Under the pieces are notes generated by a model. That model did not search any database, was not told where the DNA came from, and worked only from the letters and a program-made list of their open reading frames with translations. A program made the translations under genes and the position numbers. A DNA stretch of 57,714 nucleotides from Minisyncoccota bacterium (lineage in GTDB: Bacteria > Patescibacteriota > Minisyncoccia > Phycocordibacterales > UBA9973): assembly GCA_035299545.1 (NCBI GenBank), contig DATGWJ010000020.1, forward strand, positions 1 through 57,714. Reading direction: 5' to 3'. This document shows positions 29,621-30,966 of the stretch, one piece after another (position 1 is the first letter of the stretch; each line of letters starts with the position of its first letter).

Positions 29621-29755
29621 TTACTATCTAAATAGTCCAGGGATGTAGAGTAGTATCATACTTATTACTACAAGTATAGATATTATGGCGAATACTCGCT
29701 CCACCCTCTTTTTATTCTTTGTACTAAAATTCATGCTATAATACTAGCACTATTT

Positions 29756-30127
29756 ATGGCGAAAGAAAAGAACAATTACCAGTTTTGGCATTCACCTATT
29801 GTGTTGTTTTTCTTGTTTGCTTTTTTGTTGTTTTTCGGGTATAAAATTATTGATTTACTTAAAATAAATATAGAAACATCTCATAAAAAAGAGGTAAAAC
29901 AATTGGAAATTGATGACCTTAAAAAGAGAGAATTATCCTTGTCTCGAGATATAGCAAAATTGGAAACAGAGGAGGGTAAGGAGGAAATAATAAGAAGTAA
30001 ATATCCAGTTACTAAGCCAGGGGAAAAAATGGTGTCCATAATTGAAGAAGAAGGTAATGTTCCTTTGGAAGACAGTAAAACAAGTCATGGTTTCTGGAAT
30101 TGGTTAAAGAAGGTATTTAATAAATAA
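29756..30127 (+). CDS. Septum formation initiator family protein (FtsB/DivIC-like)
   Basis: Short N-term, one TM, coiled coil, E.IIR.KY...KPGE. Confidence 0.75.
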   Translation: MAKEKNNYQFWHSPIVLFFLFAFLLFFGYKIIDLLKINIETSHKKEVKQLEIDDLKKRELSLSRDIAKLETEEGKEEIIRSKYPVTKPGEKMVSIIEEEGNVPLEDSKTSHGFWNWLKKVFNK

Positions 30128-30131
30128 AGAT

Positions 30132-30328
30132 GCGGAATTAGTTTAGTGGTAGAACTTCTAAAATAGCATAACATGCTATTTTAGTTCCCAAGTTCTGATA
30201 TAAAGTGCGGGATTGGTTTAGTGGTAGAATGCGACCTTCCCAAGGTTGAGACACGAGTTCGATTCTCGTATCCCGCACTTTGTATCAGAAGCAAGCATCG
30301 GGCAGGAGTTCGATTCTCCTATTCCGCA
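30132..30328 (+). pseudogene. Split outer tRNA-Gly-like scaffold (5' half 30132-30155, 3' half 30295-30328)
   Basis: Acceptor GCGGAAT/ATTCCGC, D arm GTTTAGTGGTAGAAC, T arm AGGAG-TTCGATT-CTCCT; anticodon arm interrupted by ~140 nt. Confidence 0.8.
30207..30277 (+). tRNA. tRNA-Gly(CCC), nested in the outer scaffold
   Basis: Acceptor GCGGGAT/ATCCCGC, anticodon arm CGACC-TTCCCAA-GGTTG, T arm ACGAG/CTCGT. Confidence 0.93.
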
Positions 30329-30432
30329 CAAAGTAAAACTCATTAAACTTGACATCTCTGTCAAGAGTGTTAAATTTGACTGCTGTGGTATAATAATAAG
30401 GTAAAAGATTATTATTTAATTAACTTAATATT

Positions 30433-30672
30433 ATGAACAAAGTAACAATTTACAGTACACCAACATGTCATTTCTGCCACATGGCAAAGGACTTTTTTAC
30501 ATCAAAAGGAGTTGTCTATGAGGACTTTGATGTTTCTGCTAATTTAGAAAAAAGAAAAGAAATGCTTGATAAAAGTGGGCAAATGGGAGTTCCTGTTATA
30601 GTGATTGGAGATAAATTAATTGTTGGTTTTAATAAACCTAAAATAGTTGAGCTTCTTGGAATAAAGGAGTAG
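30433..30672 (+). CDS. Glutaredoxin/NrdH-like protein
   Basis: YSTPTCHFCHMAK, GQMGVPVIVIG, GFN. Confidence 0.92.
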   Translation: MNKVTIYSTPTCHFCHMAKDFFTSKGVVYEDFDVSANLEKRKEMLDKSGQMGVPVIVIGDKLIVGFNKPKIVELLGIKE

Positions 30673-30693
30673 TAATTTTCTAAATAATAAAGT

Positions 30694-30728
30694 ATTATAA
30701 AAGCATCCTAATAGGGTGCTTTTATAAT
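30694..30728 (+). terminator. Intrinsic terminator after the glutaredoxin gene
   Basis: 16-bp stem ATTATAAAAGCATCCT/AGGGTGCTTTTATAAT. Confidence 0.75.
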
Positions 30729-30730
30729 TT

Positions 30731-30802
30731 GCCCTCGTAGTTCAATGGATAGAACAGTCCCGTCCTAAGGGATAGATGTAGGTTCGATTCCCGCCGAGGG
30801 CA
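30731..30802 (+). tRNA. tRNA-Arg(CCT)
   Basis: Acceptor GCCCTCG/CGAGGGC, anticodon loop GTCCTAA; T stem has one A.C mismatch. Confidence 0.9.
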
Positions 30803-30836
30803 CTTCAAATAAACCTTTAAAGGTTTATTTGAAGTG
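30801..30836. repeat. Perfect 36-bp spacerless palindrome
   Basis: CACTTCAAATAAACCTTT|AAAGGTTTATTTGAAGTG. Confidence 0.9.
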
Positions 30837-30966
30837 TGTGAGAGTAAACCAACTGCTTGGCTTGCGTGCGGGAATTGAAGACCTTTTCCATGTGAGCTTG
30901 CGAATGGAAAAGGTGTACTGAACCTGTAAGGTTCGATAAGCGTACTCGCGGTCTGGTCGAGGGCAC
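30837..30966 (+). repeat. Structured tRNA-trailing element ending in a copy of the tRNA-Arg 3' end
   Basis: 11-bp IR 30881-30891/30904-30914; GAACCT/AGGTTC hairpin; CGAGGGCAC direct repeat (30795-30803 = 30958-30966). Confidence 0.65.

Follow-up and report, generated by a model that had tools for sequence, protein, structure and literature searches.

The window, the entire 57,714-nucleotide stretch of DNA analysed here, belongs to a metagenome-type assembly (G000) of 746 kb in 33 contigs with a low G+C content, from a host taxon known only as a Patescibacteria-like genus. G000 contains 40 tRNA genes and a tmRNA gene. At positions 30132–30328 of the window, with bacterial-type genes (LepA, MurJ and ValRS) around it, lies a complete tRNA-Gly(CCC) gene enclosed between the two halves of another. 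The components of this nest are as follows.

30132–30156, forward strand: outer 5′ arm, GCGGAATTAGTTTAGTGGTAGAACT, corresponding to positions 1–26 of a resident tRNA-Gly(CCC) (acceptor 5′ strand, D arm and nucleotide 26)
30157–30184, forward strand: a T followed by a hairpin of 12 perfect pairs (30158–30169 with 30173–30184) and loop AAC
30185–30192, forward strand: fossil anticodon loop, TTCCCAAG (TTCCCAA followed by G), from the resident gene and carried within the putatively mobile interior
30193–30206, forward strand: left inverted repeat (IR-L), TTCTGATATAAAGT, which pairs with 30277–30290 and lengthens the inner acceptor stem by 14 bp
30207–30277, forward strand: complete inner tRNA-Gly(CCC) (ARAGORN; Rfam tRNA, 66.2 bits, E = 3e-12)
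30277–30292, forward strand: right inverted repeat (IR-R, 30277–30290, ACTTTGTATCAGAA) and a GC linker (30291–30292)
30293–30328, forward strand: outer 3′ arm, AAGCATCGGGCAGGAGTTCGATTCTCCTATTCCGCA, corresponding to resident positions 37–73

Comparison with the intact genes described below identifies the outer halves as the 5′ and 3′ ends of a resident tRNA-Gly(CCC) gene. The 3′ half spans the last two bases of the anticodon loop, the anticodon-stem 3′ strand, the variable loop, the T arm, the acceptor 3′ strand and the discriminator, and the interior—136 nt in all—stands in place of resident positions 27–36 (GGTGCTTCCC), with the hairpin where the anticodon-stem 5′ strand, GGTGC, would be expected. 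Having no anticodon arm, the resident gene is dead. ARAGORN calls the inner gene only and not the outer halves; this is the sole tRNA-Gly(CCC) gene in G000, and it is presumed to be functional.

There is no ORF in the interior, which encodes neither an endonuclease nor a recombinase, and 66 nt of it (the hairpin, fossil loop and inverted repeats) correspond to neither tRNA allele. Its two ends have a TTCT.A.ATA motif in common, a loose match recognized by eye. C30292 opens a CAAG (30292–30295) that repeats positions 30189–30192, and this (C)AAG repeat is a possible target duplication of 3–4 bp. The inner and outer tRNAs also have stretches in common, such as GTTTAGTGGTAGAA and GTTCGATTCTC.

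Each of the pieces listed in the first-pass annotation was found at, or within 1–2 nt of, the place assigned to it. The hairpin (CTAAAATAGCAT / AAC / ATGCTATTTTAG, 30158–30184) is perfect as described, with 12 of 12 positions paired, and the inner tRNA is complete. The stems of the outer halves had also been called perfect, which holds for the acceptor stem (7/7 pairs) and the T stem (5/5); in the D stem all four pairs form, but one of them is U·G. Similarly, the inverted repeats around the inner tRNA do form 14 pairs, but one of these is G·U; IR-R starts at the inner discriminator, A30277. Among the 40 tRNA genes of G000, only this one has its acceptor stem extended by 14 bp; the others have 5 bp or fewer.

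The 197-nt RNA has a predicted folding energy of −75.8 kcal/mol, compared with −46.6±3.8 kcal/mol for shuffled sequences (z = −7.75), and none of 200 shuffles folds as well. The only Rfam matches in the window at the gathering threshold are tRNAs, and the same is true around the site at E ≤ 10. No second cassette was found in the 746 kb of G000 in searches allowing up to five mismatches in the hairpin and up to three and two in the two IR junctions; the remaining matches in the genome are short A+T-rich 12- to 16-mers, apparently chance recurrences. We rejected the idea that the hairpin belongs to a genome-wide palindrome family, as G000 has no other copy, and the idea that the hairpin or IR-L is a promoter for the inner tRNA, as a promoter scan found none.

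The resident gene and its alleles

The locus was surveyed in 88 genomes of the genus, G000 and 87 congeners (designated by G numbers; metagenome contigs are L250–L253). In 73 of the 88 the gene order is LepA, an FtsB-like gene and tRNA-Gly(CCC), with a glutaredoxin gene and tRNA-Arg(CCT) usually coming next. An intact outer-type gene occupies this place in G111, G024, G069, G105, G071, G023, G035 and G078. In G111 and G024 it reads GCGGAATTAGTTTAGTGGTAGAACT-GGTGC-TTCCCAA-GCATC-GGGC…, and the sequence of the empty site is …GAACTGGTGCTTCCCAAGCATC…. Over all 61 positions the window arms are identical to the G111 gene; the 5′ arm (25/25) is also identical to the genes of G024 and G069, and the 3′ arm accounts for the remaining 36/36. 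These intact genes bear out the proposal, made from the window alone, that an outer tRNA-Gly(CCC) was disrupted in the anticodon arm and its place taken by an incoming tRNA of identical anticodon.

The inner tRNA has counterparts too, being identical over all 71 nt to a stand-alone gene at the same locus in G004 and G028. Sister genomes often have different tRNA-Gly(CCC) alleles (G105 and G033, G035 and G090, G071 and G113), and stand-alone inner-type genes match the cassette variant of their own clade; those of G027 and G033, for example, are one base away from the inner tRNA of the nest in G074. From these patterns we infer that many stand-alone inner-type genes are consistent with collapsed nests. 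The alleles of G019 and G073, which combine an outer-type acceptor with an inner-type body, were considered as products of such collapse; they differ by one compensated pair only, which is no evidence for it, and the candidate was dropped.

Recurrence of the nest in related genomes

Further nests were sought by searching the genus and by a pattern scan of metagenomes. A pattern scan of genome contigs with a 15-nt query returned at least 120 chance matches, and the sole relevant one was the G074 contig JBAXNK01 (‘bacterium ELA477’). Together with the window, four congeners and four metagenome contigs—nine independent assemblies—contain the whole nest or a portion of it, with identical junctions. 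The eight further copies are as follows.

G074: complete nest
L250 and L251: complete nests
L252: complete nest; the outer D loop contains a further palindromic insert
L253: contig begins inside the hairpin
G026: left part only, with a tRNA-tail module in place of the right part
G031: right part only
G096: nest with decayed arms

The nine sequences align without gaps, and the same right junction is present in G074, G031 and L250–L253. In this ungapped alignment 97% of cells pair in the structure described above, compared with 36–51% when the partners are slid by 1–3 columns. The fossil loop is found in all copies and is drifting, being TTCTCAAG in G074, TTCCCGAG in G026, TCCCCAAG in L253 and TTGCTAGA in G096.

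An assembly chimera of two co-occurring tRNA-Gly(CCC) alleles might be suspected from the metagenome-type assembly in 33 contigs and from the stretches that the two tRNAs have in common. It is effectively refuted, since 66 nt of the interior are foreign to both alleles and since eight other independent assemblies show the same architecture and junctions, with substitutions of their own and with different arms.

The arms of the nests are of several types. Those of the window and G026 are G111-type, whereas L250, L251, L253 and G031 have G023-type arms (GCGGTCG…/…GCGGGTTCGATTCCCGCCGACCGCA); compared with the G023/G035/G078 allele, L250 is identical at 61/61 positions, L251 at 60/61 and L253 at 36/36. 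The arms of G074 match a G071-type allele at 58/61 positions. The 3′ arm of L252 is nearest to the G072 allele (2 of 36 positions differ), and its 5′ arm is, apart from the extra insert, like the G111 type. Each of these arm types is also found intact in other genomes. With an interior of identical junctions in at least three resident allele types, the cassette has entered resident genes more than once, by at least three independent insertions, a number that rests on arm alleles and not on a resolved phylogeny.

Interior and flanks differ greatly in their conservation. Among the window, L250, L251 and L252 the interior—compared over 137 nt, comprising 50 nt to the left of the tRNA, the tRNA itself and 16 nt to its right—is 95.6–98.5% identical, whereas the flanks (300 nt upstream and 450 nt downstream, largely coding) are mostly 55–70% identical. 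The 66 non-tRNA nucleotides show a single difference between the window and L250, and T30157 with the hairpin is identical (28/28) in L250, L251 and L252. The closest hosts are those of the window and L251, with flanks of 81–85% identity, and yet their arms are of different alleles, differing in paired fashion at 12–13 of 61 positions. Filled and empty alleles occur at one site among relatives (filled in the window, G074 and L250–L253; empty in G111, G023, G071 and others). When the filled L253 is compared with the empty G023, the downstream flank is 82% identical over 404 nt, and the first 53 nt, beginning exactly at CAAGCATC, are identical. Nests are scattered on trees of both the LepA and the FtsB-like proteins. 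We take the interior conservation, the filled and empty pair and the scatter on the trees to indicate repeated recent entry and not a single old insertion.

The interior was not found in 400 genomes of 223 genera in the same order, and is known from this genus only. Comparison of the locus in sister genomes, which the first-pass annotation had proposed, thus turned up both intact outer genes at the same place and recurring nests in congeners, and by this distribution the cassette is not a one-off scar. Of the three origins that had been offered, a tRNA moving as an inverted-repeat-flanked cargo comes closest, although the unit that the copies have in common is the whole 136-nt interior and not the flanked tRNA alone.

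The outer arms are frequently in decay. G026 lacks the 3′ arm; in G031 the 5′ arm is gone and the 3′ arm has three unpaired changes; in G096, 11 of 25 positions of the 5′ arm are changed and the hairpin is broken; in G076, G077 and G079 only IR-L-like traces are left; and most genomes with an inner-type gene have no arms at all. As older copies lose their arms, the outer halves are evidently not a maintained product, and the suggestion of a nested precursor whose processing leaves paired outer halves finds no support as a maintained function.

In a second explanation there was one ancient insertion that has since been inherited vertically and kept because the nested precursor is functional, for instance with the outer frame guiding processing or expression of the inner tRNA or with the paired outer halves acting as a split tRNA-like RNA. 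Several observations suit it: the unit folds as a tRNA-like frame with two helices (at the z score given above), the outer acceptor and T stems are fully paired in complete copies, there are two-sided changes in the hairpin and inverted repeats, the inner tRNAs of G074 and the window each resemble stand-alone genes of their own clades, and, as nothing promoter-like lies directly upstream, the tRNA may rely on read-through followed by processing. We nevertheless regard it as highly improbable. The arms of complete copies represent three functional alleles that are intact in other genomes, the closest hosts differ in their arms, close relatives have filled and empty sites with nests scattered on both trees, arms are lost or decayed as just described, and the outer halves when joined give no anticodon arm.

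The pairing data themselves can be divided in two. Of the complete nests, four have uninterrupted arms (window, G074, L250 and L251); in these, all of the outer acceptor and T-stem pairs hold, while the identity of the pairs varies by allele type; because the arms match intact alleles, these apparently compensatory changes are differences between functional alleles and not evolution of a split RNA. In the hairpin, pair 29/51 is changed on both sides in G074 and pair 36/44 in both G074 and G096, and the inverted-repeat pair 67/154 is A-U in the window, G-C in L251 and L252, and a mismatch in four other copies. Two-sided changes of this kind could reflect selection on RNA or DNA structure, and either a dedicated enzyme or inner-tRNA processing could depend on the structures. 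The motif ATGC, read initially as a remnant of the anticodon-stem 5′ strand, belongs instead to the hairpin: in G074 it is ATAC and is compensated within the hairpin and not with the 3′ arm, so that we also rejected a rebuilding of the anticodon stem from ATGCT in the hairpin and AGCAT in the 3′ arm.

How the cassette might move

We think it likely that a 136-nt non-coding cassette, with a tRNA-Gly(CCC) of another allele, interrupts the resident gene in the DNA itself and has moved repeatedly, probably by homology-directed copying, a route favored here over transposition on the strength of anatomy and distribution. Cassette-bearing DNA would enter a cell that has an intact resident gene, and homology-directed repair or recombination, with the two tRNA arms providing the homology, would copy the interior in. 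The transfer unit would then be set by homology to the target, with everything between the donor arms being copied into the intact gene. Every copy has the same hairpin and fossil loop and lacks the same ten resident bases, and it is from this that the homology-directed route is drawn; a transposon with ends of its own would leave GGTGC-TTCCCAAG at the left of new insertions, and none was seen, which argues for a unit defined by homology.

The founding cassette could have arisen by insertion of the inverted-repeat-flanked tRNA with a 3–4 bp (C)AAG duplication (30189–92 and 30292–95) and, as a separate step, by insertion of the palindrome that forms the hairpin. Palindromes are common in these genomes, with the extra insert of L252 as an example. 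Following insertion, the arms would be free to decay or to be deleted, leaving finally a stand-alone inner-type gene. At the RNA level, the transcript would have the inner acceptor stem lengthened to 21 bp, and ordinary tRNA end-processing enzymes would free the inner tRNA from it.

Some observations do not sit easily with homology-directed copying. The uninterrupted homology common to all outer alleles beside the junctions is about 19 nt on the left and 10–11 nt on the right, at or below the usual need of RecA-type recombination, and the 5′ arm of G074 has kept a local variant that lies only 7 nt away from the junction. A D-arm variant typical of the G074 clade is present in the inner tRNA of that genome, which also fits long vertical residence. 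Nor would the two-sided changes in the hairpin and inverted repeats be required by a simple view of a scar that is copied. Neither an enzyme nor a vector that could account for movement was found: viral contigs and phage and plasmid records yielded no cassette (the phage and plasmid records gave ordinary tRNA-Gly matches only).

The main competitor to homology-directed copying is dedicated site-specific transposition or recombination, in which an enzyme acting in trans—the single HUH Y1 transposase of G000, its single tyrosine recombinase, or one encoded elsewhere—recognizes the hairpin or inverted-repeat ends together with the anticodon-arm DNA of outer-type genes. The junctions are identical in nine copies, both ends of the unit form hairpins with a 14-bp inverted repeat around the tRNA, and there are the possible (C)AAG duplication and the loose end motif; G000 does have one Y1_Tnp gene (C2:25970-26242, 36 bits) in addition to one tyrosine recombinase gene, and the very short homology arms also speak for an enzyme over RecA-type recombination. 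Against this, each insertion must remove exactly the same 10 resident bases, the unit must carry a copy of the loop of its own target (TTCCCAAG) and then let it drift, and there is a single cassette in G000, unlike MITEs, REPs and IS200-derived repeats. Insertion of the IS200/IS605 type is not known to delete or duplicate target bases, which likewise counts against such an enzyme. We therefore consider this explanation unlikely. An anticodon-loop integrase model was also rejected, the order of the pieces not fitting B-O-P′ ... P-O-B′.

Beyond the copying itself, a tentative and rather doubtful extension is that the cassette might be a self-propagating, gene-less homing unit that knocks out the resident tRNA-Gly(CCC), makes the cell depend on the copy it brings and spreads between species. 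A nuclease or some other factor active on outer-type but not inner-type anticodon-arm DNA (or RNA) might assist it; the mosaic of alleles at the locus would then reflect repeated sweeps, and many stand-alone inner-type genes would be collapsed nests.

Comparison with known systems

tRNA genes are classic landing sites of mobile DNA. The invaders of tRNA genes known to us are integrase carriers that repair the gene with a partial copy, or self-splicing introns. The nest invader would be of another kind: a 136-nt non-coding unit, present in several alleles and several species, whose sole cargo is a full replacement of the gene that it destroys. A full-text literature search turned up no account of bacteria in which one tRNA is nested in the gene of another. 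If confirmed, the nest would represent a minimal route for the horizontal spread of a tRNA allele that supplants its competitor, a concrete intermediate of tRNA gene turnover that helps to explain the patchiness of alleles at the locus, and a natural case of gene replacement guided by short homology arms in the ultra-small genomes of the CPR. It would also carry a warning for annotation, namely that orphan halves adjoining a tRNA can be informative as fossils.

MITEs resemble the nest in being small and without an ORF. The 14-bp inverted repeats around the tRNA, with a candidate target duplication of 3–4 bp, may be a further resemblance, though all copies of the nest have 36 additional nucleotides in common to the left of the inverted repeats and outside them (T30157, the hairpin and TTCCCAA). 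The nest differs in being single-copy in each genome, in having a single target and in carrying a presumably functional tRNA.

The tRNA-tail modules of Patescibacteria are likewise small non-coding units tied to tRNA genes, and they leave a second tRNA 3′ end downstream. They lie behind tRNA-Gly(CCC) in G004, G016, G036, G022 and G026, and behind tRNA-Arg(CCT) in the window, and are structured units in which the 3′ end of a neighboring tRNA is repeated, in antisense and in sense, on the two sides of a conserved core that has a GTAA-loop hairpin; Rfam has no family for those in the relatives. The nest lacks both the core (…GGTGTACTGA-hairpin(GTAA)-…CGTACTCGCGGT…, as recognized by eye) and any antisense repeat of a tRNA tail; its position is in the anticodon arm and not at the 3′ end, and it carries a whole tRNA.

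Split, permuted and multi-intron tRNA genes have reportedly been described in Archaea, among them the split tRNAs of Nanoarchaeum and the tri-split tRNA-Gly of Caldivirga. In these, as in the nest, the halves are apart in the DNA and flanking complementary sequences extend the stem near the end of the tRNA, and the tri-split case is also a glycine tRNA. The host of the nest, however, is a bacterium, as judged by its LepA, MurJ and ValRS neighbors, and the halves are unconserved and cannot give a decoding tRNA; in the predicted fold there is no 3-4-3 bulge-helix-bulge at the nest junctions.

Integrative elements in tRNA genes (prophages, ICEs and genomic islands) are said to include a class located in the anticodon loop (Williams 2002), the gene being restored with a 3′ part borne by the element. 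The nest is similar in its target and in its position in the anticodon arm, in compensating the damage with tRNA sequence that it brings, in displacing the resident 3′ part downstream and in its recurrent site-specific insertion among relatives. It differs in size and content, as the 136-nt unit has no integrase or ORF and the sole tyrosine recombinase of G000 is on another contig. It also brings a whole tRNA and not the missing part, so that the resident 5′ part is stranded as well; it has no att-type direct repeat beyond 3–4 nt; and ten resident bases are replaced, with the working gene being separate and not a hybrid.

Group I introns and other homing insertions share with the nest a position in the anticodon region of a bacterial tRNA gene and the occurrence of filled and empty alleles among relatives. 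As with homing insertions, conservation is much higher inside the nest than in its flanks, the pattern expected from copying via exon homology. The nest is, though, too short for a group I intron and has no ribozyme core, and no Intron_gpI or other intron family was found by cmscan at E ≤ 10 in positions 29700–30900. Splicing could not restore a working tRNA, because nucleotides 27–36 are gone from the arms, and function is instead rescued by a second complete gene. In contrast to insertions associated with homing endonucleases, we know of no endonuclease for the nest. On this comparison, the nest appears to work most like a homing insertion combined with the integrative elements that compensate for damage to a tRNA gene, but it would be gene-less in itself and would bring a whole second gene as its cargo.

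Allele classes at the tRNA-Gly(CCC) locus

The locus comprising LepA, an FtsB-like gene and tRNA-Gly(CCC) was surveyed in 73 genomes of the genus, and the tRNA alleles were sorted into classes by their anticodon stems. At least four classes (CGACC/GGTTG, GGTGC/GCATC, TTTGC/GCAAA and CGTCC/GGATG) occupy this one locus with a patchy distribution, and mosaic alleles are present in three genomes (G072, G103 and G017). The two main classes are both found at the same locus in other families too (G044 and G043). When genomes G105 and G033 are compared, the flank is identical from 2 nt past the tRNA gene; the tRNA-Gly(CCC) gene is exchanged without its flanks.

One further genome, G005 (L024 / L062), carries at this locus an outer-type gene (an allele resembling the resident, split gene) whose anticodon is read as ACC. 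The 3' half is perfect, and the several changes all lie in the 5' half (GAGGAATTAGATTAGTTGTAGAAATGGTTCTTACC…); either the gene is decaying or the assembly is poor near a contig end.

Structured modules behind tRNA genes

The window contains a structured non-coding unit, here called a tRNA-tail module, behind its tRNA-Arg(CCT) gene:

30804-30966, tRNA-tail module behind tRNA-Arg(CCT)

Within it the T arm of the tRNA is copied in antisense (GCGGGAATTGAA) and the tRNA tail in sense (…CGAGGGCAC). It also contains hairpins, one with a GTAA loop, and a conserved stretch (GGTGTACTGA…CGTACTCGCGGT). This module and those that lie behind tRNA-Gly(CCC) in congeners constitute one family, and a search of Rfam returned no family for the modules. 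Elsewhere in the genome that owns the window (G000), three tRNA genes have a module in the 140-260 nt downstream:

Contig C5, 2866-2950, tRNA-Leu(TAA)
Contig C7, 15700-15772, tRNA-Arg(GCG)
Contig C17, 360-444, tRNA-Tyr

Each of the three is composed of an antisense acceptor, an antisense T arm, the conserved core and a sense tail, and each is re-matched to its own tRNA; at least ten tRNAs of this genome have their own 3' end duplicated 110-260 nt downstream.

Modules at the tRNA-Gly(CCC) locus do not always match the tRNA in front of them. In G004 (L004, 1580-1716) the sense tail GATTCCCGCTACTCGCAC closes a module behind an inner-type tRNA (one resembling the tRNA of the cassette), and this tail is that of the third allele class, as in G063 and G025, not that of the tRNA now preceding it. 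In both G035 and G063 the antisense arm of the module is matched to the inner-type tail, not to the tRNA now present. The modules thus preserve a trace of former occupants of the locus.

Partial and degenerate tRNA genes

Short 5'-end copies, without a matching 3' piece, lie upstream of two tRNA-Lys genes in G000:

Contig C6, 5249-5324, minus strand, tRNA-Lys(CTT), copy ~74 nt upstream
Contig C7, 7239-7312, tRNA-Lys(TTT), copy ~69 nt upstream

Both correspond to the first 12-13 nt of the tRNA, offset by about one tRNA length, and may be relics of a former gene copy. The tRNA-Arg(CCT) gene of G022 (L018, 2145-2400) is degenerate, with an Rfam score of 27 bits that is below threshold. Behind it come a palindrome and a core resembling that of the modules (…GCGAAAGGTGTACTGACCCTGTAAGGGTCG…), and the gene may be interrupted at this point.

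Palindromic inserts and candidate enzymes

A 15-nt pattern scan, which is prone to chance matches, identified a hairpin directly after 16S rRNA-like sequence in a Candidatus Moraniibacteriota MAG (L143; JAUSGT010000002.1, ~2820-2910). Its stem (ATCCCGCACTTTGT / ACAAAGTGCGGGAT) has the same 14 nt as the cassette (G074/G026 version) at the point where the tRNA-Gly acceptor end meets the inverted repeat, a likeness that may be coincidental.

The nest-bearing metagenome contig L252 (Ga0209538_1039004) has an extra insert of ~35 nt in the outer 5' arm; relative to the match at 955, it lies ~85-120 nt upstream. Two small hairpins (CCGACCAGAGTCGGACTCCGACGTGAGGTCGGAG) make up this insert, which sits within the D loop of an outer gene that was already disrupted and is one case of the palindromic mini-insertions that are common in these genomes. 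G000 encodes a single gene of each of two enzyme types:

Contig C29, 11965-12486, tyrosine recombinase (146 bits; ORF of 312 aa)
Contig C2, 25970-26242, HUH Y1 transposase-like gene (Pfam Y1_Tnp, 36 bits; ORF of 246 aa)

The Y1_Tnp gene is a candidate for the agent that acts on this genome's many palindromic inserts.
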